Shown here: one piece after another, positions 34,508 to 55,329 of the stretch
How positions within the stretch are numbered: position 1 is the first letter of the stretch
How the letters are laid out: every line of letters starts with the position of its first letter
NCBI GenBank assembly: GCA_951406725.2
Contig: OX597815.1
Location: 62,186,001 to 62,250,000, forward strand
Origin: Octopus vulgaris
Lineage: Eukaryota
Length of the DNA stretch: 64,000 nucleotides
Direction: 5' to 3'
Program-made: the position numbers and the translations under genes
Notes under the pieces: model-generated
The model's input: only the letters and a program-made list of their open reading frames with translations
The model's database searches: none
What the model was told of the DNA's origin: nothing

Positions 34508-35388
34508 CAATAGTCATTGTCTATGTGTATAATATATATATATATATATACATACATATATACATATATACGCACACACAAAGATACTTATATGGACGCA
34601 TACATATCTGTGTTTAGATGTATGTGTGTGTGTGTGTGTATTTGTGTATATGTGCGTATGTGTAAGAAGAGTTAAGGGAAGAGTAAGTGTAGGGGTCGGG
34701 GAGTGAGAATAAACACGTCATTGTCCAGAAAAACAAATGAATGGGAAGATTGAATCTAATGAATGAGTGAACTCTTTCATTTTGCTTTGTTGTCTGCTCT
34801 CTATGTGATGTCAGTTTGTGTGTGTGAGTGTGTGTGTGTGTTTATGTGTGTGTGTGTGTGTTTGTGTGTGTTTGTGTGTTTGTGTGTGTGTGTGTTCGCG
34901 CGTAAATGTGTTTATACATATCTGTGTGTTCTTAATGTATGCGTTCTTTATAAGTACGTATGTGCGTGTACATACGTATATTCATACTTCTATATTCCTA
35001 TAAGCAGTGGAACGTGTACATACAAGCATATATACATACACACACATACATACATTCATTGTTACATACATACATACGTACATATAAATGTATGTATGTA
35101 TGTATGTGTGTATTCATATATTTATGTACACTGTTTATGCAGAACACATATACACGCACACATACACATGTATGTCTGTATACATGGATGTATATTCATG
35201 TGTCTGCGATTTCAAGATGGGGGATGAAAACATTAAATACGAGGAGGAGACAGTGATAGTTAGCCAGCTTGATTGATAGATAGATAGACAGATAGATAAA
35301 TTGATAAATAGATTGATAGATACATAGATAAATAGACAAATGGGATAGATGGATAGATATATAGATAGATATATAGATAGATAGATAT

Positions 35389-35422
<34 letters not shown>

Positions 35423-35425
35423 GGC

Positions 35426-35495
<70 letters not shown>

Positions 35496-35889
35496 CATAC
35501 ATACATACATACATACATACATACATACATACATACATACATACATACATAGACAGGTAGATAGGTAGACCGAAAGACTTAGAAAGATAGGGAGAGAGTA
35601 TGAATAAGGAGAGAGGGAGATAGAGAGAAAGCGACATACGGTGGTAAAGAGAGAAAAAGAAGGAGTGTGTGTACCGTCTGAACTGTTTATGGAGTTAGCA
35701 ACGGAAGAGTTGGAAAGAAAAACAAACCAATTTCCATAAACAGCAGATAAGGTGATAGTGCAGGGTAGGGGTAAAGTATAATGGCGGTCGTAAAGAGGAG
35801 TAGCATCACTATAACAACATACAAGTACAGCAGCAACAACAATAGCAACAAGAATAAAACGAGACGATAGTAACAAGAACAGCAATAAA

Positions 35890-35983
35890 AGTAATAATAG
35901 TAATAATAATAAAAATAATAATAATGATAATAATAATAACAACAACAATAATAATAATAATAATAATAATGATAATAATAATA

Positions 35984-36041
<58 letters not shown>

Positions 36042-36083
36042 TGATGATAATAATAATAATAATAATGATGATGATATTAATAC

Positions 36084-36154
<71 letters not shown>

Positions 36155-36248
36155 GTAATGTTCTTCGTAGTTTTGGTTTTATAAACAATTAAAATAACAA
36201 GAACAGAAAGAAATGAAGAGAAATAAGAACAACAGAAAAGGAAGAACA

Positions 36249-36326
<78 letters not shown>

Positions 36327-36620
36327 CAGTAGTAGTAGTAGCAGTAGTAGTAGAAGAAGAAGAAGAAGAAGAAGAAGAAGGAGGAGGAGGAGGAGGAGAA
36401 GAATAAGGAGGAAGCGGGGGAGAAGAAGAAGAAGAACAACAACAACAAGAGAAAGTAAAACAGTAACACCGCCAAGTTCACCACCACCCACCCAAACCAC
36501 GAACGATAACCACGACGAAGATGACGACAACCAGCAGCTGCAGCAGCAGCAGTAGCAGCACCACCACTACCACCACCACCGACACCATCTCCACCGCCAA
36601 CACCACCACTACTACCAACA
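35890..36620. repeat. Long (TAA)n, (GTA)n, (GAA)n, (CAC)n trinucleotide tracts
   Basis: Direct reading. Confidence 0.9.
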
Positions 36621-36743
36621 CCCTCACCACCATCATCTCCAAGGCGACAGCCAGCGAAACAAGTGAAACGCGAATAATATGACCGACGGCAACAACAGCA
36701 ACAACCCTACCGCCACCACCTCATTTATTACAACAACAACAAT

Positions 36744-36781
<38 letters not shown>

Positions 36782-36908
36782 TGACTTTAGGAATAACAGC
36801 CACAATAAGAAATCTTTCTTTTATTAGCCACAAGGGTACAATAGATAGAAAAATGTTTTACAGAAATATAAAAACGTGGGGGTGCGGCTAAGACGTATGT
36901 GTACATGC

Positions 36909-36982
<74 letters not shown>

Positions 36983-37076
36983 GTATATGTGCGCGCGTAT
37001 GTGTATGTGTGTACATACTCACAGATTCAGAATTTGTAAACAACATTTAATGAACTGTCAAGTAAATGGAAATCTC

Positions 37077-37110
37077 TTTGACGTTTCGAGCTTAATCTCT
37101 TCTTCAAATC
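37077..37110 (-). ncRNA. Degenerate minimal hammerhead motif
   Basis: Minus strand: UU-UGAAGAA-GAG auuaag CUC-GAAA-C-GUC-AAA; same layout as 57975-58009. Confidence 0.5.
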
Positions 37111-37189
37111 TATCTATCTATGATACATACTTACATATATACACGCGCACACGCGCACACACGCATATACACCCACCCACATATATATG

Positions 37190-37620
37190 TAATGGTGATA
37201 CTACTTAAATATGGCTGCTCAGAATGAACTGATGTCATTGCTATTTTTAATGCCAGGAGGACGCCTCCTTCAGCTGGTTATTGGATGCAATCTTCACCCG
37301 CTAGAGATAGCAGAAGTTCAACCCGCAATATATAGAATTCAAGTGACACACTCACTGATCTTGCAACAAGCAAATTAGCTAGTTATTGCCAGCTGGAATG
37401 AGCTACTGCTATCTCTAGCGAACGAGTATCTACCACCGAGGATTACCACAGAGAGGTCAACACCCTACATTCTGGTGGTTTGGCGGTGTTACTGTTATAC
37501 TTTGCAAAATATATCGGACGCAGATTACATCAAATAACCAGCTGGGAGAGGCGTCCCCCTTGTGTTAAAAATAGTAGTAATGTCGATTCCCATGGAATAT
37601 GTTTAAGTGGCAATATCCAA
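37190..37620. mobile_element. Diverged fold-back element with about 100-bp inverted termini
   Basis: ctatttttaatgccaggaggacgcctccttcagctggttatt pairs with aataaccagctgggagaggcgtcc...ttaaaaatag; inner perfect 15-bp pair cgctagagatagcag/ctgctatctctagcg. Confidence 0.75.
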
Positions 37621-37674
37621 TTTCAGTGTAGTTATTGCTCTCATCTCTTATAGAAATTTTCTAACTGGTTAATT

Positions 37675-37760
<86 letters not shown>

Positions 37761-37859
37761 TATATATATATTATTTAATTGAACGCTACGCATCCATTTC
37801 CAAGTAACTTTATCTTAATTTTTTTAATGCGTCTCTATCTATATATTGTTCTCTCCCCT

Positions 37860-38400
37860 ATCATTTTCTCTAATCGTTTCTCTAATTCCTTTTTTCTCCC
37901 CTTCACCGGTTTCTGTCTGTCGGTCTCTCTCCCTCTTTTCCATTACTCTCTCTCGTTCCTCACACGTGATGATCGTCCATCTTTCTTTCCCTCACTTGAT
38001 CATCTCTCTTTTCTTTTAGGGCTGTCCGAGCGGTTGGACGTATCCTGTCTTTTCTACTTTTTCTCTTGTCAAAGAAAATATTTCTCCAGCGTCCGCTATT
38101 TGACCTTCGTCTGGTGTAACGACCCTCTCTTATATGTCTCCACTATCCTGTTTTTGTTACCAACTTTGACCCTCCATAAAATCCCAGATTTTAGTTTGGC
38201 TTTGTGAGAGCAACTGCCTTTGAAGATTCATATTGTCGTTCAGTGCTCGAAATGAGGAGTAGATAGGCCGCCGGCAACTGATGAAAGGTCGTTCTTTATG
38301 TTATTTGTCCTGATTTCCATCTGCTTCTCTCGTTGTTTGCGTATTCAACTTATTTGTTATCGTATTTCATGTTCTTTACTGTTTGTGACGTCCTGTACCC
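37860..38400 (+). repeat. Pyrimidine-rich interspersed repeat; second copy at 60680-60990
   Basis: ttctctaattcc...cttcaccg...ctcaca.gtga..atcgtccatctttcttt shared between both loci. Confidence 0.65.
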
Positions 38401-38774
38401 ATATATGCATGGGTATATATATACACACGCTCATACTTAAATACGGGAAAAGAAGATAGCATTCTCACGCATGGTTAAGATACCATCTTTGAGGTTGGGT
38501 CGAAACCACAAACCCGTCGGCTCTAGTATCCTCCAACTCCAGTTCCCGATTCTCTGTAGTATTTACACTTTAGTTTTCACCATCGCTTACACTTATTTGA
38601 CGGCACAATTTGGATGAGGATAAATTCTTGAGGTCGTGTAGGTAGACAGGAATGACGAAGCCCATGTTATCACACAATAAAGCAAATATTTCAAAATAGA
38701 CAAAAATATATTTTATGGTTATTTGTTGTGTACACCATCACATCGGTGAAGTTGAGATTATCAACACGACATTC

Positions 38775-39207
<433 letters not shown>

Positions 39208-39869
39208 ATTGTTAATATTCTGTTTTTTAGATACTTTTTGGTTTTGATTCTTTTTGTTTCTACTGTTGATTGTTCTGGTTAACATTTTCCCAGTCGTTTA
39301 CGCTCTGAGTGTTGCTTTGCTTCCTGTGACTTCAAGTTTTCCTTGAGTTGATCTTCTAGTTGTTGTGGTTGAGCTTTCTCTTCTTTTAGTTTTGCAACGT
39401 CAATATTGACTTTTAGCAGTTGGTGTTGTCATATGTGTAGCACCTGGGTCTTTCCTTTCACCACAACGAGCATTAAGGTGCCGTTCGACAAGTCTGTCTG
39501 ATCAGGGACAGTCTTTAATTTTCATCGGTTCTTACGTTATTTGACATCACGTGTACATTGACTGGAATGACGATAAGTTCTCCAATTCTGTCTGGAGAAG
39601 TGGATTGCTTCGTTGTTTGTCATTTTTGTGGAATTGTACCTTCATTGCTTCATAGCATCTGTCGCTGGTAACATAGTCTGTCTTTTGACAACCACATTTT
39701 AGGTATTGTTTTGTTTGGATATATGTACTTGTAGTTCTTCACCAGCCGGATATTCTTTTCTATTCCTCCAATTATTCATCGTTAGTTGTTTTACCCATCA
39801 TAATTTCTAAGAGGTGTGTGTATGTGTGTGCTAGAGCTTTTGTTATCTACCTTTAAGACTTAGGCCTTT

Positions 39870-40610
39870 TTATGATGTTTTAAAAACATCTTTTTATGAA
39901 TATTTTTGTAAATAAGATGATTGTTTAAAAACAGAGAAATGAAACAATAAAGAATAACCCGAAAAATCAGTGGCCAATACTCAACTTCACAGAGTCTGCA
40001 TAGAAATAAAAGTGAACTTTTATTTATGACACTGTCACGCATATAAAACATCAACTTTGGACAAATTAGGGGACAGTAATTTTGAGACCTGACTAAAGGC
40101 AAATCACAGGAATATTTTTAATAGACGCTCAACAAAAAATTCGTACAGCTACTTTCCCAATATAAACGACATTACCACTCGGAAGTCACATCAGGAGCCC
40201 ACTTCCCGTTGTAACTGTCGAGACCCTGAAGCTTACCGGCTTCATTAGGCATGGTTGATAAACGCAGTTGTTTATGAAGCCGATGTTACAGCAGTACTCC
40301 AAGGCAACATAACTGAGAAATAAAATTACACCAGTTTGTGCGAAGGCGATTTTAAAAGCCGTTAAGTAAATCACCAGTATTCTTTCTGAAACATTGATAA
40401 AAATAAGGCCACTAAGTTGGCTAGCCATGAATGGGATCTGAAGACCAAATGCACACCACATACAATCAAGTGGGGAATCGTGGAGAAATATATTCTATAT
40501 GTAAATGGACCAAAGAGAGTTATGCGTCGCTGAAAGATTGCAATATTCTTTTTAGGCCCAAGAATTCCACGACGCTATTTAATTCCAGAACCTAACAAAT
40601 GCAAGCACAC
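39870..40610 (+). mobile_element. Penelope-like element relic, GIY-YIG region; same family as 26770-28030
   Basis: cttcccgttgtaactgtcgagacc, aaaattacaccagtttgtgcgaag, ccaagaattccac shared with 27515-27900; AVVYEADV, YT.LCEGDFKSR..NHQYSF, IKWGIVEK. Confidence 0.75.
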
Positions 40611-40989
40611 AGACAGGATTCTTTTATTGAACTGGAGGGCATCACCCACTCCGGACTGAGTAGCTATCTCACAGACTTTGCCCACCACCTCTTTCTGCAC
40701 CATCTTTCTGCACCTCTTTCTGCACCATCAACATTGTATATGGTTTCTATAGTAAAAGAGGATGAAGATCTTAGTTCTGTTTGTTTCTTTCTTTCTTTCT
40801 TCTCCTTCCAGTTTTTGCATCAATCTTCTTCGCAATTTTTCATCTAAGTTTTCTCTCTCCTCTTTTTTTTCTTTTGGTGTGCTGTCATAAATTAGATTCT
40901 TTGAAAATACATAACATGTTATATGAATCTACTAATTTGTTTTAAAACCTAAAACTATTAGTAGCTCTTCTGTAATTGTATATATCAAC

Positions 40990-41028
<39 letters not shown>

Positions 41029-41097
41029 AATATATATATACATACATACATATATATGTATGTATGTATATATGTATGTATGTATATGTATATATAA

Positions 41098-41142
<45 letters not shown>

Positions 41143-41863
41143 TATACTTATATATACATATATTTATGCATACATACGTGCATATATATATCATACATGT
41201 TACTAAAAAGTTAGTATTGTAGCTTTATTTTTATCTCTGTGGTAATCAGTACCTACATGTGTCTACAATATATGTATTTGTTTATAGAGGTGCTAGTAGA
41301 TCCAATATCTTACTTCTGTGTGTAATGTTCGCTTAAGAGAAATTATCTGGCGCTGTTCAATTTTTCTTGAGTATTTCAACTCTAAAACACAATGGACCTC
41401 CATTTGGCGGGTCGGTCGTGATGGCCATTAACTTCCCATCAACAGGCTTTCAGCTGTCTGCATCCTGCTTCTGTCTGCATCCTGTTAGCCAGAAGCTCCT
41501 TCTGTTATACTCTACCACAGCACATTTCAAGATACAGCAGTCTCCCCACCTTTCTTGCTTCTCTCAGATCTCTCAGCAACTTCCAACCAAACAGTGTCGG
41601 GAAATCTTCGCAGCCAACTCTCACCAGAAACAAGCAGAACTGTTAATTTTCTCCTGTTAGATCGGCCAAACCATTGTACTCGGTGGCAATATTCTGTGAA
41701 GTCTCCTCACAATGATCTCGGGGTGTCACTCCACGGACCACGCGTAGACACACGGGCGCATAGACACACCCTTATGTGTATACACGCACATATGCAAGAT
41801 ATTTAAAATAGAAACATTCCGACTTAATTTGCATCTTATATTATTTCTGGTTTATGACGACTG

Positions 41864-42345
41864 GCATGTATGTATGTATGTATGTATGTATGTATGTATG
41901 TATGTATGTATGTATGTATGTATGTACGTACGTACGTATGTATGTATGTATGTATGTATGTATGTATGTATGTATGTATGTATGTATGTATGTATGTATG
42001 TATGTATGTATGTATGTTTGTACGTACGTACGTATGTATGTATGTATGTATGTATGTATGTATGTATGTATGTATGTATGTATGTATGTATGTATGTACG
42101 TACGTACGTACGTATGTATGTATGTATGTATGTATGTATGTACGTACGTACGTACGTATGTATGTATGTATGTATGTTTGTACGTACGTACGTATGTATG
42201 TATGTATGTATGTATGTATGTATGTATGTACGTACGTACGTACGTACGTATGTATGTATGTATGTATGTATGTATGTTTGTATGTATGTATGTATGTATG
42301 TACGTACGTACGTATGTATGTATGTATGTATGTATGTATGTACGT
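41864..42345. repeat. (TATG)n tract with interspersed TACG and TTTG variants
   Basis: Direct reading. Confidence 0.95.
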
Positions 42346-43137
42346 ATACATATACATGCATACGGGTGTATGTATATGTATCTGTGTGTATGTGTGTATG
42401 TGTGTATGTGTATCTGGGTTCGAATGTAGTAAATATATACGACTGAGTTTTATTCTGTATGAATATTTTCCCGCTGATAAGAACAATTTTGATATAACGG
42501 CGGTGCATCAGCATGGCCGCAGCTCTGAGCTGAAACTGTAGACAAAAATGTGTATATATTCTATTGTTACTCACACCAAATAAGGGACAGCCTATGGTCA
42601 AACACCAAGGACCGGCACCAGCACCACCACCTTCCACCACCACCGCCACCACCACCACCACCACCACCACCACCACCACCACCACCACCACCATTAACAA
42701 TAGTGAGCACTGACATTTGCGCGTCATCTGCCATACTACTCTCCCAGCGAAGAATCGAGAGAGAATTTTGCATGATTTTATAAGTCTGAGATCAAATTCT
42801 CGGAGGTGAGACCACATTAGAGAAGCGTTAGCGAAATGAAAGACAAAAAAATGAACAGAAAAAAAATAAACCAAATGCATTGTCACCAAGTGTTTACGGT
42901 CGACCAGACAGGGCTAAGTAGGCCTCCCATTGACCTTCTCAAGGTGGTCTTTAAACAACAGCAACTGCAGGTATGAAGTAGCGCTAATATATACTGTAAT
43001 TATCCTATTTGGTTTCTTTACAAATAATCTCACCTAATCTTCTTGTCTGCATCAGTTATTTTAAACGGATACGCTTCATGAATATGTATATCAATGTAAG
43101 TCTGTCTACACTTGCACCACTAGCTCAAATAGGCACA

Positions 43138-43190
<53 letters not shown>

Positions 43191-43229
43191 ATGTGTATAT
43201 ATATTTATATTTATATATATATATATGTA

Positions 43230-43281
<52 letters not shown>

Positions 43282-44058
43282 CATATGTGTGTGCATATAT
43301 ATATATATATATATAAAACATAACATACATAATACATATAATGCAAATAGATCCAAAGGTGGTTTCGATCATGAGTACCTCAATTTGTTCAATCAAGCAA
43401 ACTACCTTCTCAGTGTGAGTGGCTGAATACTCTACTGACACATGTACCCTTACCGCAAGAATCAGCTTACACGATATTCATGGGTGAGACAAGGCTGGAC
43501 TTCTGAATTAAAGGATCAGTGTATTCGAAGGGCTTCGCTATAGTTTCCGTTTCATCAATTTCGTTCGCATTTCAAGAGTCGAGTCGAGTACAAGGTAAAT
43601 AACATTAGCTCCAGATACCAGGGAGTGAGAGCAAAAGCAAGACTTGGGGAGTTGAAAGCGAACTCCTTAATGAATTGGCCAAAACCAAACACATTATGTA
43701 TGTATGTATGTATGTATGTATGTATGTATGTATGTATGTATGTATGTATGTATTTATGTATGTATGCATGTATGTATGTATATTATATACATACACAGAC
43801 ACATGTGCACACAAACACACACACACACACACACGTATACATGCATGTATGTACTATTTATGTATGTATGTGTGTATATTTCTATATGTACTTATTGCAT
43901 ATATACATATTCATAAAAAAAGACACATACATTTGCATACAGCACAGATGTCGCAAGAGAAAAGTTCTGCCCTTTGATTAATGTTAGATTAAGCTTAGCA
44001 TTTATTTTTTTAAACAAGTGGGATGTTGTGCACGTATGTATATAAAAATATATATACA

Positions 44059-44102
<44 letters not shown>

Positions 44103-44149
44103 CATATATATATATGCGTGTGTGTGTGTAAATACTATCATATACGCGC

Positions 44150-44415
44150 AGAGATGGAAGTGTGGTAAGTAGTTTGCTTACCAACCACATAGTTCCCCAC
44201 CATAGCTTGACATCCAATGCTGGTGTTGTTACGTCCCCGTAAGTTAGCTGTTCGGCAAAAGAGACCGATAGAATATGTATCAGACTTACAAAAAATAAGT
44301 TTTGGGGTCGATTTCTTCGACTAAATGTAGTGCTCCAGCATTTGACATCACGTGCTGTGCTCCAATATGGCCGCAGTCAAATGACTGAAACAAATAAAAG
44401 AAAAGAAAGTAAAAG
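44150..44415 (+). mobile_element. SINE family C, internally deleted
   Basis: gtggtaagtagtttgcttaccaaccac joined directly to the tail ...ggccgcagtcaaatgactgaaacaaataaaag. Confidence 0.8.
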
Positions 44416-44459
44416 AGTATATATACGTGTATATATACACATATACATATATATATGTA

Positions 44460-44708
<249 letters not shown>

Positions 44709-44719
44709 TAATCATACAC

Positions 44720-44950
44720 GCGGAAGCGCGTGGCTTAGTGGTTAGGGTGTCAGCATCATCATCGTAAGATTGTGTTTTCGATTCCTGGACCGGGCGACAC
44801 TTCATTTCACGTTGCTCCACTCCACGCAGCTGGCAAAAATGAGTAACGCTGCAATGGATTGGCGTCCCGTCCAGCTGGGGAACACATACACCATTGAAAC
44901 CGGGAAACCGGTCCCATGAGATTGGCTAGGCTTTAAAAGGGCGCATTTAT
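44720..44950 (+). mobile_element. tRNA-derived SINE (head A plus tail Z, Nin/V-domain-like)
   Basis: gtggcttagtggttaggg...ttcgattcc; ccactccacgcagctggcaaaaatgagta; ctgcaatggattggcgtcccgtccag...gaaaccggg. Confidence 0.8.
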
Positions 44951-45120
44951 TTAATTGTTATCGCCATATTAATATGGCAGTCTTATAGATATAAGACTAA
45001 AAGCAGTCGCTGATTAGCTCCATGAGCCCATCGCCTTAAGATAGCTATTTGGCACACAAACTGTGTCCATTATAACCTTTGAACAGGGGAGGTCAGCCGC
45101 TTCACACTGCTAGTCAGACA

Positions 45121-45163
45121 GCTACAGACGCGTTTCAGGGTATTTGCCCTTTGTCAATGTAGC
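45121..45163 (-). ncRNA. Intact minimal type I hammerhead ribozyme, U3:A8 core variant
   Basis: Minus strand: GCUACA-UUGACAA-AGGG caaaua CCCU-GAAA-C GC GUC-UGUAGC; perfect 6-bp stem I, 4-bp stem II, palindromic ACGCGU stem III, GUC triplet. Confidence 0.85.
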
Positions 45164-45211
45164 ATAGTTAACCCAGCAGGTGTCGCCACTGATCGTCTCT
45201 GTTCGAAGGTT

Positions 45212-45258
45212 TTATTTACCTAGTTTCGGTGGAATACATCCACTTGTTTTCAATAATA
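45212..45258 (-). ncRNA. Second, weaker U3:A8 hammerhead-like motif
   Basis: Minus strand: UAUUa-UUGAAAA-caa GUGG gauguauu CCAC c-GAAA-C UAG GUA-AAUA. Confidence 0.45.
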
Positions 45259-45412
45259 GAAATATTAAAATTACTAAGTCTTGTTCGAAGGTTATAATGG
45301 ACACAGTTTGTGTGTCAAATAGCTATCTTAAGGCGATGGCCTCATGGAGCTAAGCAGCGACAGCTTTTAGTCTTATATCTATAAGACTGCCATATTAATA
45401 TGGCGATAACAA

Positions 45413-45494
<82 letters not shown>

Positions 45495-45512
45495 TGTATA
45501 TACATATATATA

Positions 45513-45721
45513 GTATAAAAGATCGTAGGTAAGGCCAAAACAATACGAAATAAATGCAAGGTAAATTACAAGAAATGTAATTTATGTGAATTAATGTGAA
45601 TTAATGTAGACTAATGTATTGTATTCAATATTTCGGGGTTATGACACCATTTTCAAGAAATTGACGAATGTTGGCGATGTGCATATCGGCAACATTCGTC
45701 AATTTCTACGATCTTTTATAC
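45513..45721. mobile_element. 209-bp element with 16-bp perfect inverted termini, a U3:A8 hammerhead-like motif and a 50-bp hairpin
   Basis: gtataaaagatcgtag / ctacgatcttttatac; minus 45624-45659 UUC-UUGAAAA-uGGUG ucauaa CCCC-GAAA-U AUU-GAA; hairpin 45657-45706; TA tracts on both sides. Confidence 0.7.
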
Positions 45722-45764
45722 AATATATTCTACACAATACTTCACAGTAATTATTCTATTATAA

Positions 45765-45891
<127 letters not shown>

Positions 45892-46254
45892 TGTATGTAC
45901 CTCTCTTACTATGCATATAATAATATATATGTATACATATACGCGTGTACACACACACATACTTACACACATATTCATATGGGTATGTATAATGAATTCC
46001 CAAATCCACTGCAATACTAATAACCTGTTAGCGCTCAAAATACGTTTTAGAGAAAAGCGTCAGGAACTAACCTGTCGCTTTTGTCTAATATATCTCTCAA
46101 TAAACGACAAAAGCAGTTTTAGAACCCTATGTGTATTGTCGTTCGTGTTATGTTACTAGCATCACTTCTTATGAATCTGAATTTAGTTTTATCATAAGAT
46201 TACATGAAGAAAATGAACATAACGGATTGTTCATACGATGTTTTTGAACTATAT

Positions 46255-46463
46255 ATATATTCTTTTATTTGTCTGTCATTTGACTGCAGACATGCAGGAG
46301 AAGCGCCTTTAGTCGACGAAATCGACCCCAGAACTTATTCTTTGTAAGCCTAGTACTTATTCTATCGGTCACTTCTGCCGAACTGCTAAGATACGGGGAC
46401 GTAAACACACCAGCCTCGGTTGTCAAGCGATGTTACGGGGGACAAACACAGACACAGAAACAC

Positions 46464-46521
<58 letters not shown>

Positions 46522-46595
46522 GACAGGTTTCTTTCAGTTTCCGTCTACCAAATCCACTCACAAGGCTTTGGTCGGCCTGAGGCTAAAGTAGAAGC
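46255..46595 (-). mobile_element. SINE family C, head missing
   Basis: tcatttgactgc...cagtttccgtctaccaaatccactcacaaggctttggtcggcc. Confidence 0.85.
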
Positions 46596-46599
46596 TTTT

Positions 46600-47860
46600 A
46601 TCAACAGATTTTTAAAAAAATTCCTCACACTATCTGCGATATTTTCTATTATAGTTTTGTAAAAGTTTAATGATGTTTTAATTAAAGGTATGTCCTTGGA
46701 GGTCTTGAGGACGAATCCCTCAAATTCCTTTCCCCCTGTCTTTATACTGTTTTTATTTTGATTTACAAAATCCATCAATTCACTGTTGCACTTGTTCACA
46801 ACAGTGAAATTGATGGATATATTTCGTCTATAGACTGAAGAATAGCTTTGAAGTTCTGTAATTGGTTGTTTCTGTGATTCCATGCTGGTGTTGATGACGT
46901 TGCTGTTTGGAAGTTGTTGATCTTGTTCTTGTTTTTGTTGGAGTGGTTGTGAATTGTGTTGCAGTTGTGATTTCAGAATACGTTTCCGTTGATTTCTTGG
47001 AGTAGGGCGCATTCTCCTCCTCTTTCGCTTACTCACTTTCGCTGCTGTGATCTATTGATAGTTCAGCTCTTCTTTTTCTATGTCATTGCAGTTGACGTTG
47101 GTTTGGGAGGAAGAACATTCAGAAGAAACTTGCTTTGCTGTGGCAATCTGGGGTAGACTCCTTCTTTGTCTTGGTTTGGGAGTGGTTGTGAACGTGGGTG
47201 TGCGAGTGAGTGTAGGCATCTTGAGCACTTGTTTATGATTTTGACATGTGGTGCTTGTAATGTTGGCAGCAGCGGGACTTTATTTTTTCTTGTTTCAGGG
47301 CATAAAGCCTTTAAGTGATTTACAGATCCACATGTGTGGCATCTTGACTCTTTACCCTCCATGAACACTAACATGTGGGTAACATCTGGGAGAGTGATTA
47401 GATCGTGCAGCTGCTTGATATGGTCCTGCTTGCATTGCAAGGTCAGTTCCATAGCTTTAACTAATTTTGCTTTGGTAATTTCTTGACCTCAAATATTGTG
47501 ACTTCATCTTCTTCTAAACCTGCCTAGACGGCCGCCACTAACCAGGTAATGGATATTCCTGGAGGCACATTCAGCACCCTAATCTTGGCAAGACGTTAGC
47601 TGCGATAGCTGGGGATTAAAAAAAAGTTGTAATTCCTCAAAGTTATTTTGGAATTACATCTAGCTCCTTCTTTCATCCCAAATCTCACCTCAATAGTTCA
47701 AAACTTCTTACCTCGGGCGATGTGGGTCTTTTGTTCCCACATGCGTCCAAGGCATTTTTGTACTTCGTTCTCAGGAGCATTTTCCTCCTGCCTAAACTGC
47801 TTTCAATACCTAACTGTCACTAAAAAGGTTTCCTTATATTGGGATAGGTATCTCATTAAG
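46600..47860 (-). mobile_element. Second ORF1-only RRM-like plus CCHC element, decayed
   Basis: KIRVLNVPPGISITWLVAAV, LVFMEGKESRCHTCGSVNHLKALC, followed by a basic, Q/P-rich tail. Confidence 0.7.
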
Positions 47861-47929
47861 TTCTCGAATCCGGTACACACGCAGTCTTCCATACTTATCA
47901 GTCTCCTTCCTCCATTTGCTCTTTTTCTG

Positions 47930-49110
47930 TATAGGCGATTAAAGTCTGCATATGGATGATGGGCTCCATGCATTAGCTGATAAAATGATAATTAAAAATT
48001 GTAGATGCAGATTGACAGGAATTAATGTAGCATGGGTAGATTACATGGTATCATACCGTTGGATAAGTAAAACAAAGACCATGTTTGGAATAGCAAAGAA
48101 CATGGAGAGAATGCTTAATGAAAGTATGAAATATTGGAATACTGAATTGATTGGAGGAATCAAAGCCTCGGAAAACGGAACATTAGAAATGGAATTTTCC
48201 AAGGTGATAGCTTATCTCCATTACTGTTCGTATTGCCATCACACCGCTAACTATGATACTACGAAAAGTTAAAATTGCTAACGTTTTGGGAAAAGGAAAT
48301 GGTCAGGTAAAGCATCTCCTTTTCATGGAGGATATAAAAGTTTATGAAAAAATAAGAAACAGCTTGAAAGTCTTGTACATCTGCATTTTCTCAAATGACT
48401 TAGGTATGAAATTTGGGATAGAAAAGCGCGCTGTATTGAAAATGAAACGAGGGAGATTTGAAAGAATCAGGGAATTGAAATAACAAACAATTGGGCAAAC
48501 AATGAGAGCGGTTGAGAATGGACAGTGGTATAAGTGCTTAAGGGAATATTGGAGGTAGACGAAATAAAAAATGAAGAAATGAAACAAATTACCAGTAGAG
48601 GGTAAACAAGGAGAATAGAATTATTGCAGTCAAAGCTGAATTCAGAAAATCTTGTTGAAGCAATAAATTCAAGGGCAGTACTCTTAATCAGATGTGGAGT
48701 TGGAATAATAGACTGGACCAGAAATTAAATAAAGAAAGAAACTTGACAGAAAAAACTAGAAAGTTGTTGACGATGTATGGAGCCCACAATCCGAAAGCTG
48801 ATATCAACCGGCAGTATTTGAGGAGAAACCAAGGTGGAAGAGGTTTAATGGTAGTAGAAGAATGTGAACAGATGGAAAGTAAAAGTCTAGCAGAGTATTT
48901 ACAGAACAACACAGAAAAACTACTAAAGACTGAATAAAGGTCAGGTGATCAAGCGCGGAATAGAAGGAAAGGATAAGAATTTAAATACAAAGAGAGTACG
49001 TCTGACAGATAGAAGAAAAACCTCTACATGGCCAATTTTGGAGAGTCACTGGGCTTGGTTAAAGAAGGCGCAATTAAAATGACAGCTGAAAACTTGTGGA
49101 TACCTAAGGT
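47930..49110 (+). mobile_element. R4/Dong-type RT fragment, decayed
   Basis: DKMIIKNC...INVAWVDY, GIFQGDSLSPLLF, HLLFMEDIKVY, MKFGIEK, LTMYGAHNPKADINRQYLRRNQGGRGL; followed by (TAA)n. Confidence 0.9.
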
Positions 49111-49240
49111 TACAAGTAGTAACCTGCTACGCACATAAATCCTACCAGTAATAAGACCGAACCTGAGCTAAACCAAAATAATGATAATAATGATATTAAT
49201 AATGATAATAATAATGATGATAATAATAATAATAATAATA

Positions 49241-49318
<78 letters not shown>

Positions 49319-49399
49319 TTGATGATAATGATGATGATGATGATGAGGATAATGCTAACAATAACAATAATAATGATGATGATGATTATGACGATGATG

Positions 49400-49685
49400 G
49401 ACTCTTTCGTCGAAGACGACGCGTGGGCATTCACCTTTTGCTGAACGATTTGCACAAATAATTCGTTTCTAGTGATCAAATGTATGTGCCGTACATTGCC
49501 TCACTCCTTCCATCAAATTGGCGTTGCCTGAACAGGTACACGGTGTACCGCGCGTCAGGTATCGAATTGATAGCAGAGCAACATTAGATGAAGTGTTGAA
49601 GTGATTTACACAAGAACCTCAGTAGGAATTGAAACCATGGTCTTACAATCCCGAATGCGACACGCTGACCACCAAGCCCATCCCC
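49400..49685 (-). mobile_element. tRNA-derived SINE (head A plus a further tail W), diverged
   Basis: Minus strand ggcttggtggtcagcgtg...tgtaagaccatggtttcaattcc...acacttcatctaatgttgctc resembles the 44720 head; different tail. Confidence 0.6.
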
Positions 49686-49729
49686 TTGGCAATAAGGTCA
49701 CTGCTCAGTAATATTAGACATACTTATTA

Positions 49730-50960
49730 AAGAAAATGGACAGTGTGTCAATCGACACCCGGAATAAAAAAAAAGAGAGAACTTTCAGAGTCAAACCAAA
49801 TGTGGGTCAAAATGTTTTCTGGTTGTTTGATTCCTTCCAATAACATAGGCATGAAGACCTCCATTGACCGGATAACTCCCAACAATGGCCATCGAGCACA
49901 CCTTTTTCACCGAACAAACATACTTAAACTGGAGGAAGTACCGAACACGGACGCCAATAAATTAGCTAATGATCGCAGGAACATCATAAAGAAATTGCTG
50001 TTGACTGACCTTGATTCAATTGTATATTTAGGTCAATAGTCATACAAGTAATAACGCAAATAACGATACAAAACATGCTCCCATGGTGGAAGTAGAACCT
50101 AGCATGACAAATACCCAAAGCGAGGTTATCAATGAAATTGCCCCTGGCACTGATTTAATTTATAGTGGAAGAGGAAACAAACACTGAACTTGACAAGCTA
50201 AAAGCAAAAATTCTATCAGAGTGGCTGAAGGTCAAACACACCAGACAGAGAGATCACAATGATCTTCCTAAAATTCACAACTCAAAACAAAATGGCGGAT
50301 TAATAGGCAAAGTAAATGTAGTTATAATTTTCATCTCACTTCGCTAAATAATCTACTTTATGCAGCAGCTTCAATAACTATTGCATAATGTAGTAATCAA
50401 ATAAAGAAAAAGACTTGGAATATAAACAGGAAACCAGTGTGGCATGAAAGAATTATAAATAAAATTAGTATACTTAGATCTGCTATTGAACCATTCAAAA
50501 ATATCAAGAGCAAAAACAGGTCAAAATGCCGAAACTGACAAAAAAAGAAAAGAAAAAGTGAAATTGACGAAGCAATTGAAAAAGATAAGGAAATCATCCA
50601 AGCCAAAGCGGCACGGAAAAGGAGACTCGAAAAAAATATTTGACTTATGTTTTGAAACAATCTTAAAAGTTTTTATAGGAAAATTACAAAAGCTAATATA
50701 AATATAAAAACTACACCTACCAATGGAGAAGTACAAAAGTTTTGGACATCGATCCGGTCGCACCCTAAACAACACAATCGTAATATTCCCCGGATTCATC
50801 AACAAGTCAGAAACCGTGAATATTAAATTGTAAATATGGAAAGATGTCTCTGTTGAAGGTCACAAGTCTACACTGAGAAAATCCAACAAATAGAAATCAC
50901 ATGGGAAAGATAACATCCCTAACTGCTGACCAAATGCTTTTCCTTGAATCTCATGGGAAA
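49730..50960 (+). mobile_element. R4/Dong-type N-terminal fragment, heavily decayed
   Basis: LANDRRNIIKK, LPKI, NLLYAAASI, KPVWHERIINKI..LR, EVQKFWTSI, KSHGKDNIPN parallel the N-terminal region at 4239-5495. Confidence 0.65.
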
Positions 50961-51197
50961 CTGACCCACTACTGACCCATTATGGCCGAAAAATAACCAC
51001 TGAATTTTAAACGCCACTGATCTGGTTTCTTCTGAAATATGTTGATAAAAGCTAACTTTAAAGCAATTCTCCACCAAGTCGATAAAATTCTTGGAGGTAT
51101 TCTCTACAAAAGGTTAGTGCTTCGAAAGAAAACTATTTAGGGGACAATTTCTGTTTAGAGAAAAGTTGCTTAGAGTGATGCAGTTATATGTTGGGGA

Positions 51198-51578
51198 ATA
51201 CTCTTTTACTCTTTTACTTGTTTCAGTCATTTGACTGCGGCCATGCTGGATCACCGCCTTTAGTCGAGCAAATCGACCCCGGGACTTATTCTTTGTAAGC
51301 CCAGTACTTATTCTATTAGTCTCTTTTGCCGAACCGCTTTTGCCGACGTAAACACACCAGCATCGTTGTGGGACAACACAAACACACACACGCATATATA
51401 TATACATATATACGACAGGCTTCTTTCAGTTTCCGTCTACCAAATCCACTCACAAGGCATTGGTCGGCCCGGGGCTATAGCAGAAGACACTTGCCCAAGA
51501 TGCCACGCAGTGGGACTGAACCCGGAACAATGTGGTTGGTTAGCAAGCTACTTACCACACAGCCACTCCTGCGCCTAT
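51198..51578 (-). mobile_element. SINE family C, essentially full length
   Basis: ctcttttacttgtttcagtcatttgactgcggccatgctgg...gggactgaacccgg...cttaccacacagccactcct. Confidence 0.9.
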
Positions 51579-52089
51579 GATTTTGAAAGGTTTCTGGAAT
51601 TAAAATACTTCATGAAGCAGCAAAAATTTTTGAATGAGATTAGCTTACCTTAATAGTGTTTCTATTATGGAGTCGCTCATCTCTAATATTTTTGGGAAAA
51701 TGAACAAAGATTACTTCTAAGAAGTCTCTAAATATATATGTAAGGACGTTTAAATTAAAATCTGGATGATACCATAAAATAGAGCTTGGTCTATATATCT
51801 GACGATCGTGAAGTACATAGATTTTAAAAATATTTCATAAACTTCTTCCAAGAAATATGTTGACAATAAGTAAACTTAGCACTGTTAATACTTTGAATAC
51901 TCTTTCAATTTACAAATATATATTCTACTCTCAGTGTAAACCTAACAAAAGATTATTTTATATACATATGAATTTGAACCTCACTATGATAAGAAATTTG
52001 TCACCAACATTAGTAAACGCATATTCCCCTTATCTTCAGATGAGGATACATTCATTACTTCAATGACGAAGCAACAAATTAAACATATA

Positions 52090-53377
52090 CAGGGCGGGGA
52101 AGCAAAATTTACAATGAACGCTATGTTGTTTTTTCTCAGGAGGCACTAAGTCAATTGTTTTGAAACCTAGCATATATTGATGTCATACTCATACCTAACA
52201 CTATTATCATTACCTTTTCAGAAACTTTTGCCTATATGAGTAATCAGAAAAGCAAAAGTCAAAGAGTGTGTGATTTTCTGAATGCACTCGTCACACCAAA
52301 GGAGATTTCAAAAATAGTAGGAGTGTCCATAAAGACTATTTATAAAGTAAAGAATAAAATGACTATGAGCAAAACTATTACGAGGAAGTCTGGAAGTTGA
52401 GCAATCAACAAAAAACGTACCAAAGCTTTTATTAAAGCTCTCAAATCCAAAATCCTAAAGGATCCAATCGAATCCATGAGAAAAATGGCAATTAAATTTG
52501 AGGTAGACAACAAGACCGTTAGAAATGCTGTAAAATATGATTTGAGGTTAAAATCTTACACAAGAACAGCAAAACACTTGTTGACAACAGCTATGAAGGA
52601 AAAGAGATTGGAGAGGTGCGAGAAAATTATTACATGGTTCAAGAAAAAGTTCTCCATTGTAACGATCTTTTCAGATGAAAAGATCTTCACTGTCGATGCT
52701 GTTCTGAACAGCAGAAATGACATATTTATCGCAAAATCAACAGCTGAGGTTAAGGGGACATTCAAAACAAAAGATCCTGTTCAAGTTATGGCTTTTGGTG
52801 TTGTGGCTTCCGATGGAAAGAAAATGCCTATAATATTCTACAAAGCTGATGAAAAGATCAATGTTAATACTTACTACAAGACTCTGAGATACGAGGTATT
52901 GCCATGGCTTAAAGCAAACTTACCCAGATAGTAATTATGTATGGACACGGGATGGTGCTCCAGCCCACACAGCTAGAAAAATACAAGATTTCTGCAAATC
53001 CAACTTTAGCAATTTTTTGGAATCATGTTTATGGCCGCCTTCTAGCCTAGATCTAAACTCTCTGGATTATGATATTTGGGGCGTTTTAGAACATGCTACC
53101 AATAGAACATCACACAGCAATGTCGACTCTCTTAAAGATACTATTAAAGAAGAATGGGAGAAGTTGTCTCCCGAATATTTGAGGAACGCCTGTGAAAGTT
53201 TCAGGAAGCGTGTGAAGGCAGTTATTGAGAAAGGAGAACACATAGAATAAAAATATTTTCTATTATGTAAATTGTCTTGTGGCAAATAAATTCTCATGAA
53301 TTTCAATAAACAAATTGGTCATACAATATCTTTCAAACCCCGCCTCAAAATATTGTAAATTTTGCTTCCCCACCCTG
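52090..53377 (+). mobile_element. Full-length Tc1/mariner transposon, DD37D (maT) family, 1288 bp
   Basis: 26-bp TIRs cagggcggggaagcaaaatttacaat / attgtaaattttgcttccccaccctg (1 mismatch), TA on both sides. Confidence 0.95.
52236..53250 (+). pseudogene. DD37D transposase with in-frame TGA (52398-52400) and a frameshift near 52925
   Basis: IFSDEKIFTVD, DGAPAHT, WPPSSLDLNSLDYDIW; 37 residues counted between the second and third Asp. Confidence 0.9.
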
Positions 53378-54194
53378 TATATGCTATATGCTAATGTTTC
53401 CAAATGTGAAAAATAGTCAAAGAGATATCTTATGGTATAATCCAGTTTTTAATTTAAACATCCGTATACATCATATTAAATAGAATTCTTAAACTTAATC
53501 ACTTTTTGTTTTTTCGAATTTATTTACTAGAAACACAGTTAAGGCAAAGAGTTCTTTCAATAATTTTGCTAGTTCTATTAACCATTTTAATTCCAGAAAC
53601 ATTTTCAACATTTTCAGACAACGATATATTATAGTCTATTTTTTTATTGTAAGTTCATGACGCCAAAACAATTATCTACTAAAGATGACTTGAATTACTG
53701 GAAACTCATGGAAAGACATTTATGCAACGAGTTAGTTTCGCTTGCACTATTAATATTTTTACGCTCATGCTCTTGTCATTAAAAATACACCTTTTACAAT
53801 TTAGTGTATAGACATAAAAATATTCTCCAGCATTCTCTCTTAGCAAAATATATTGTTCCTGGGTCAAACTGATCTTTCCAAACACATATCACATAGTCAA
53901 TCCTTATTCTACATGAACAAACGAGTAGTCACTAAGGTATTCGGCATCATTTCTCTATGCATATCGTCCACTTACTTTTATGTTTCGTTCATCGAAGATC
54001 GATAACAAGAAACATTGGGTAAAGATTTGTGAAGTTTCAGTTTCCAATAAATTGTTTACATATGTGTGTATTCATGTGTATGAGCATAAATATGTATGTA
54101 CGTATGTACACGCACACACATACACACATACATATTATACATATATGTATATATACATATATACGTACAAACCCATACACATATGTGTGTGTGT

Positions 54195-54243
<49 letters not shown>

Positions 54244-55329
54244 TTGTGTGTGTTTATATTATAATGGAGAAAGCTGCTTATTAATTAGGAATAAAACAGT
54301 TACTAAAAGAAAGCAATTGAAGGCTCGACCGTCTGGAAATTCTTTTATAGATTCATGTTCCAAGTAATTTCCTGTAATTTCGATTTCTGCAGTTTATTGA
54401 ATATTTGAACTATATCTTTTTCACAAATTGAAATATTCGTTGCATTCACTGCGGAGAAGATTTTAAAGTTTGATATTAATTCGTTGCAGGCGAAAATTTC
54501 CGTTTTCATTTGCAACAGTCTCTCACTCTCTCTCGCCTATATTTTCATTAATGATAACTTAATATGTATTCATTTCAATGTTTTCATTTCAAGTTTTATT
54601 TCGCCATTTTCAAAACCCACAGTTTGTTTTATATACGTAATGTAAAAAAAAAAAAATTGAATGAATGAATGCTATGAGACAAAATAGCTGTATAACTTTG
54701 GGGCTTACGAGACACAATTCCAAGAATAATGTTTGCAGAGTTTGTTGAATATTTTGGATAGGATTAATTTTTTTTTAATATACCGGTGTAATCTTTTTAA
54801 AATTAGAAGTGATTTTGTTGGTATGGCTATTTGGAACGCTATAAGCCTTACAATAATAACTATTCCTAGCATGCTAAGTGTAGTTGAGTTACCTTGAAGT
54901 TTATATAAATTAGAAATGTATTACAACTACGATAAATTACTGAAATAAATATTTACGAAGCAAATGCGATTCTTTATAAATTGAACTTTTCAGGAAAATT
55001 TACTTTCTGAACTTCCTTTTATTGTTGAATATTTCAATTTAAATATTCAGTACAAGATAGTTTTTAACGAGCTTTTTCTTATACGATTTTTTCATTTCAT
55101 GTTTATTGCATTCATTGTATGCAATGTTCTCTCTCCTTCTCTCTCTCTCTCTCTCTTTCTCTCTCACACACACACTGTCTCTCTAATATAAACATACACA
55201 GTCTCTGTAACATAAACACACACACACACACACACTCCAGGTTTGATTTCGTTATTACACAAATATAACAATTAGACTTTTGCAATTCAACTTGAGGCGT
55301 CCAAAAAAATAGTATCCGGCTGAAAAAGA

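Follow-up and report, generated by a model that had tools for sequence, protein, structure and literature searches.

A high-copy 364-nt hammerhead repeat in the Octopus vulgaris genome, likely a non-autonomous Penelope-like element, and its fold-back insertions

Analysis of a 64,000-nt stretch of the Octopus vulgaris genome (here, the window) indicates, with a probability of roughly 0.88, that an inverted-repeat element within it derives from a single insertion of a 364-nt repeat, non-coding and of high copy number, with a conserved hammerhead ribozyme (HHR) motif, likely a non-autonomous Penelope-like element (PLE) of the non-LTR retrozyme kind, and that its fold-back shape likely formed at insertion. 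Judged by the features that can be tested in sequence, the family belongs to the metazoan non-LTR retrozymes and bears the insertion signature of PLEs; it is neither a MITE nor a new class. The original prediction had proposed a retroelement derived from inverted PLE ends, possibly an undescribed class of mobile structured RNA. The tie to PLEs is supported; the fold-back as mobile unit is contradicted by variable junctions, and HHR-bearing units of this type are already described as non-LTR retrozymes in the available text of Cervera and de la Pena 2020 (PMC7229834) and of Li et al. 2026 (10.64898/2026.07.22.740005).

The repeat unit and the window element

In a search of the 2.8-Gb genome, in which 40 of 3200 candidates were scored, the closest copies among these best 40 (96-97%) align with element positions 1-331 only, since the window element consists of monomer positions 1-331 fused to an inverted copy of positions 195-331 (Table 1). 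The unit of the family is a protein-free monomer of 364-365 nt that is found singly, in partial tandems and in fold-backs, and that lies head to tail in tandem loci such as L017, L020, L078 and L113. Same-strand HHRs about 360 nt apart, making two consecutive HHR units, are present in L020, L025, L008 and L078; the two-consecutive-unit arrangement that Li et al. use as their criterion for 'active' elements is thus found in family loci and not in the window copy, which carries one HHR only. Exact matches in the genome number 614 for the HHR pattern and 976 for an anchor outside the HHR (reversed controls, 0), both being lower bounds on the number of motifs, of which one insertion may hold two. 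Part of the stretch is present in 20 of 24 sequencing-run entries, none of them listed as RNA; assembled contigs from four runs of four studies, presumed to be RNA, cover 29-30 of 30 bins, and these contigs, which are blind to ends, strand and level and so have no bearing on expression, include none that spans the unit and no listed circular joint.

Table 1. Features of the window element and its immediate flanks
Feature	Position in window	Strand	Description	Basis
Long arm	44951..45281	-	Monomer positions 1-331, ribozyme sense	97% to natural copy; end classes
Short inverted arm	45280..45416	+	Monomer positions 195-331, outer end also A	
Inversion junction	45280..45281	.		2-nt overlap of the two arm alignments
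Imperfect rod (extended stem I), HHR at tip	45076..45209	-		Folds; extended-stem pairs 92% paired in 21 copies
Type I minimal hammerhead motif	45121..45163	-	U3:A8, palindromic stem III	Predicted cut 45127/45126
Conserved hairpin region	45212..45270	-	Holds end B site and second HHR-like motif	Variability count, fold
(TA)n microsatellite flank, likely target	45417..45484	+		Sequence
Unrelated interspersed repeat	44720..44950	+		AT-rich 3' end abuts element; 3' end recurs separately in L028

The near-identical 135-bp terminal inverted repeats (TIRs) first noticed in the element are real as sequence (44951-45085 and 45282-45416, 135 nt, 96% complementary), and the two small palindromes ascribed to them are found in both arms; they arise from the short arm and the matching part of the long arm. 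The inner imperfect hairpin is likewise genuine and belongs to the monomer, the minus strand of 45070-45290 folding at z=-6.2 (0/200 shuffles equal) and the rod of another natural copy at z=-6.6. At 466 bp the element is too short for an RT plus GIY-YIG open reading frame (ORF), and none was present among ORFs of at least 150 aa in window positions 35000-55000. The outward end of the long arm is fixed end A, with the tail of about 59 nt absent, and no target-site duplication (TSD) of the window copy is readable. An A/A insertion thus produced the flush 'TIRs' by chance, and the copy is likely an inert, dead-end insertion, because both arms are at A and there is a single HHR.

Several other features of the window were noted. 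The interspersed repeat that abuts the element, in which no tRNA gene was called, is presumably a SINE. A 141-nt inverted pair (44201-44341 and 46292-46432; 83%, 1950 nt apart) flanks the element and probably represents two copies of another repeat in opposite orientation. A small separate hairpin (inverted repeat) at 45656-45708, downstream of the element, gave weak matches to miRNA models. The 176-aa open frame at 52401-52931 (+), without a Pfam match at E<=0.01, resembles a fragment of a Tc1/mariner-type transposase.

The hammerhead motif and constraint on its fold

A complete minimal HHR with a GUC site had been predicted on the minus strand, and the sequence agrees: stem I (GCUACA/UGUAGC), core UUGACAA, stem II (AGGG/CCCU), GAAA, and a palindromic stem III (ACGCGU) followed by GUC. 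The core pair is U3:A8 instead of the canonical C3:G8, a form reported, together with action as a dimer, for Schistosoma PLEs in the available text of PMC4209133. The motif is the sole match in an HHR scan of the 64-kb window; Rfam scans returned no hammerhead family at the gathering score or at E<=10, and the catalytic core is absent from minimum free energy folds of the window copy. According to the portions of these sources at hand, minimal HHRs of PLEs cleave weakly (PMC4209133), and one of nine frog retrozymes cleaved in vitro (10.64898/2026.07.22.740005).

Conservation was evaluated in 30 loci collected by the non-HHR anchor, of which 25 reach the HHR and among which two locus pairs are arms of one insertion. 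The 12 HHR core positions are variable in 5 of 300 cells, as against 419 of 3740 at positions 205-330. When the window copy is aligned to 20 of the 30 anchor loci (the other 10, too short on the 5' side, were excluded), 94% of stem cells are paired and 28 double changes are seen against 9 in shuffles, with 0/500 shuffles as high; this control ignores relatedness, which inflates the counts, and the changes represent a few subfamily events. Across these 21 copies stem I alternates between A-U and G-C and stem II among A-U, G-U and G-C, and the centre of stem III is self-complementary in 21/21 (AU 11, GC 7, UA 2, GU 1). The nearly invariant core and the compensatory stem changes establish the HHR as a conserved family feature; they point to selection on the HHR fold in master lineages and to pairing of dimers through stem III, as proposed for PLE minimal HHRs.

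A second, weaker HHR had been suggested at 45212-45258. Its sequence is present and is not maintained as a ribozyme: A13 is T in 4/12 copies, two unpaired bases precede stem II, and there is no G10.1-C11.1 pair. No part of the unit is better conserved than monomer positions 1-65 (15/714 cells variable), which fold into hairpins that contain site B, and the region 45212-45270 would be an RT start or binding region rather than a ribozyme. The 3' half of the second motif shares 17 of 20 bases with the HHR of an autonomous PLE family (E 2.7), a lead by which the motif could be an HHR relic.

Ends, inversions and target sites of the insertions

Fifty-six distinct insertions were classified, comprising the 30 best matches of the genome search, picked by likeness to the shape of the window element, and 26 of 30 position-ordered loci (4 duplicates being dropped). 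Their outer 3' ends lie at two sites about 59 nt apart, A (~331) and B (~390). Fold-backs make up 33/56 (22 with A+B, the window copy as the one A+A, one B+B, and 9 with an end elsewhere), and the 23 non-inverted insertions end at B (16), at A (5) or elsewhere (2). A+B thus accounts for 22 of the 24 fully defined fold-backs, as compared with about 36% expected if the two sites were used independently at the 16:5 ratio of single insertions; this pairing is, by analogy, the 'tail' signature of Penelope. Insertion lengths range from 218 to 986 bp, 5' ends are variable and do not cluster at the predicted HHR cut site, and inversion junctions are scattered. A 2-nt overlap, a putative microhomology, lies at the junction of the window copy, and the microhomologies of other junctions were read by eye. 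L002 and L003 have a common junction in mirror arrangement. At L069 (G000:C1:30481822-30484852) the fold-back runs into flanking non-family DNA on both sides, which suggests that a larger inverted duplication took place where the element inserted.

A TA run of at least 10 nt occurs within 35 nt of an end in 48/56 insertions, in a genome that is itself rich in such runs. Most sites lie in (TA)n and their TSDs are unreadable; in 2/56, L019 and L068, both outside (TA)n, target duplications of 11 and 13 bp are readable. An automatic call at L004 was discounted as low-complexity. In the proposed search for TSDs, the short uniform duplication expected of a MITE (TA, TAA or TTAA) was not seen, the TSDs being 11-13 bp at the two readable sites and the window copy itself unreadable.

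These data leave next to no probability for a DNA-transposon MITE with a chance HHR-like motif, although the flush 135-bp inverted ends starting TTAA and the TA-rich flank would suit one: tandem units exist, an inverted arm is missing from 23/56 copies, stem changes in the HHR are compensatory, and TSDs are long where readable. The family does resemble such MITEs in being short and non-coding, and the window copy in its flush inverted ends, whereas ends and arm lengths in the family are not fixed, a short uniform TSD is absent, and there are tandem copies and a conserved ribozyme motif. The earlier judgment that this is no MITE was therefore sound, given the spread of lengths, the uninverted copies and the lack of a short uniform TSD, and non-uniform ends together with a conserved HHR refute the MITE reading.

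It had also been asked whether copies are fixed in structure, as in a true fold-back family, or variable; junctions and lengths vary, as for one-off PLE insertion products, and the unit of the family is the 364-nt tandem monomer. The alternative that the fold-back is itself mobile, a rod RNA being re-transposed as such (which would be a new class), draws on the very stable rod fold of the whole element (z=-33) and on eight top matches whose junctions lie in a similar zone (~194-203 joined to 357-10). Those eight, however, were selected by likeness to the window copy, and their junctions differ, with mirror-image arrangements and different subfamilies; the position-ordered sample alone has 16/26 fold-backs with every junction different, the A/A form occurs once in 56, and the best relatives of the window copy are 86-89% identical, as against 97% for monomers. 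A mobile fold-back is thus very improbable and largely refuted.

Penelope-like elements, retrozymes and a possible mechanism

An autonomous PLE family (L122-L130, e.g., G000:C5:1039800-1046300) is abundant in this genome; its 781-aa RVT_1 plus GIY-YIG ORF is intact in 9/9 loci fetched and has a C-x4-C-x2-C linker resembling the Neptune/Nematis type. Some 75 nt short of its 3' end this family has a U3:A8 HHR with an ACAUGU palindrome; it shares the UUGAUAA..GAAACAUGU core and (TA)n targets with the 364-nt repeat, and has an optional 3' tail ending CTATTAT, like end B. Tandem repeats in its 3' UTR and apparently another coding-like region upstream of the ORF were also observed. The first 100 of 745 end matches listed for this family include, at spacings below 5 kb, 8 inverted pairs that face outward and 1 that faces inward; both pairs inspected are fold-backs of a tail-less arm (A) and a tailed arm. 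Fold-backs derived from the family's own 3' end are 220-700 bp long and HHR-bearing (L137 is a MITE-shaped piece of 220 bp with an HHR), and they are a within-genome control for the mechanism.

The 781-aa family is a candidate partner only. The nine full-length PLE loci matched the monomer at E>=2.7 only, so without significant homology, and what the monomer and the sampled PLE loci have in common are short motifs, the HHR core and CTATTAT at end B. Among 30 GIY-YIG loci the sole strong match was at L049 (86% over 291 nt), which was rejected as an autonomous partner, being a separate neighboring insertion on the opposite strand beyond about 450 bp of (TA)n. By eye, HHR-like motifs of other PLE families were seen 3' of GIY-YIG in L034, L046, L047, L051, L052 and L058, with C:G, U:A or A:U as the 3:8 pair, differing stem III palindromes, and GCAA replacing GAAA in L046 and L052. 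At L042:1750-3264, immediately past the 3' end of a PLE, there is a distinct long inverted-repeat element, several hundred bp in size, and the GIY-YIG match of L048 (G000:C30:5219680-5222829), unlike those of PLEs, is presumably a host endonuclease exon, SLX1-like.

The copies might instead be 5'-truncated 3' ends (pLTRs) of an unsampled autonomous PLE and not an independent family. The 781-aa family does make such fold-backs, and scoring covered 150 of 6136 GIY-YIG candidates. What precedes monomer position 1, however, is the monomer's own end, closing the 364-nt repeat, and never another common sequence in the loci inspected, and the closed unit is kept in several subfamilies; this origin is considered improbable.

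An independent, non-autonomous family agrees with much of what is described for PLEs. In the available text of PMC8557442, PLE insertions are partial tandems with truncated 5' ends, frequently lie next to an inverted copy that is also truncated, have a tail of 30-40 bp at one end only, and are biased to microsatellites, (TA)n in Naiads. With EN+ PLEs of the Neptune/Nematis type, as far as the sources at hand describe them, the octopus family shares 5' truncation, partial tandems, an inverted 5' copy, a tail at one end, the (TA)n bias, and a minimal HHR with palindromic helix III and U3:A8; it differs in having no ORF, a tail of about 59 nt rather than 30-40, and no significant homology to the sampled autonomous families. 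With metazoan non-LTR retrozymes, according to the portions available of PMC7229834 and 10.64898/2026.07.22.740005, it shares a non-coding tandem monomer of a size between 150 and 450 nt, a single type I HHR in each unit, many dispersed copies without LTR structure, long TSDs when present, and co-occurrence with PLEs. It departs from them in occurring mostly as monomers, partial dimers and fold-backs, not long arrays, and neither fold-back insertions nor an A/B tail are described for retrozymes in those portions, the word 'inverted' being absent from PMC7229834. Hammerhead hits in a squid genome are mentioned without analysis in the available text of PMC6962438. A literature account of this 364-nt family was not found in a search of publications; it may be catalogued in repeat databases (Repbase, Dfam) or supplements, which lay outside that search.

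A mechanism can be proposed from these features. In vitro, AT-rich DNA is cut by a PLE protein on both strands, each of which it then extends, its RT starts at two internal RNA sites with the interval between them being the tail, and HHR cleavage is dispensable (PMC11167929). In the octopus, tandem copies would be transcribed, and two HHRs would pair via the palindromic stem III and release RNA of unit length, which may form circles. With an RT/GIY-YIG protein provided in trans by a PLE, an AT-rich target would be nicked on both strands and two cDNAs would begin at internal sites of the RNA, in most cases A for one and B for the other; the two truncated cDNAs would be joined by few-base microhomology to give outward-facing inverted arms. 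Because the predicted cut site lies within inserts, some of which are longer than one unit, either circular RNA or an uncleaved multimer would serve as template. More tentatively, and at rather less than even odds, the family may be a minimal natural substrate that records PLE integration, in which both target strands would be primed in one coordinated event, nearly always at A plus B, from a circular or multimeric RNA template; the most conserved part, just downstream of B and never at an insert's end, would be the RT-binding site, and since sequence shared with the mobilising PLE would be limited to the HHR core and a few bases at the ends, recognition would be by structure and not by pLTR homology.

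In summary, the octopus repeat provides a clear retrozyme family with the full PLE insertion signature of tail, inversion and TA bias, and adds structural to phylogenetic evidence for the recent proposal that the retrozymes of animals are non-autonomous PLEs, from a genome that is not part of the mostly vertebrate set of the Li et al. study, as its available text describes it. Such fold-backs can be mislabelled as MITEs. For in vitro work on the PLE mechanism, the 364-nt RNA is also a convenient substrate, its start sites being mapped and covariation being available from natural copies.
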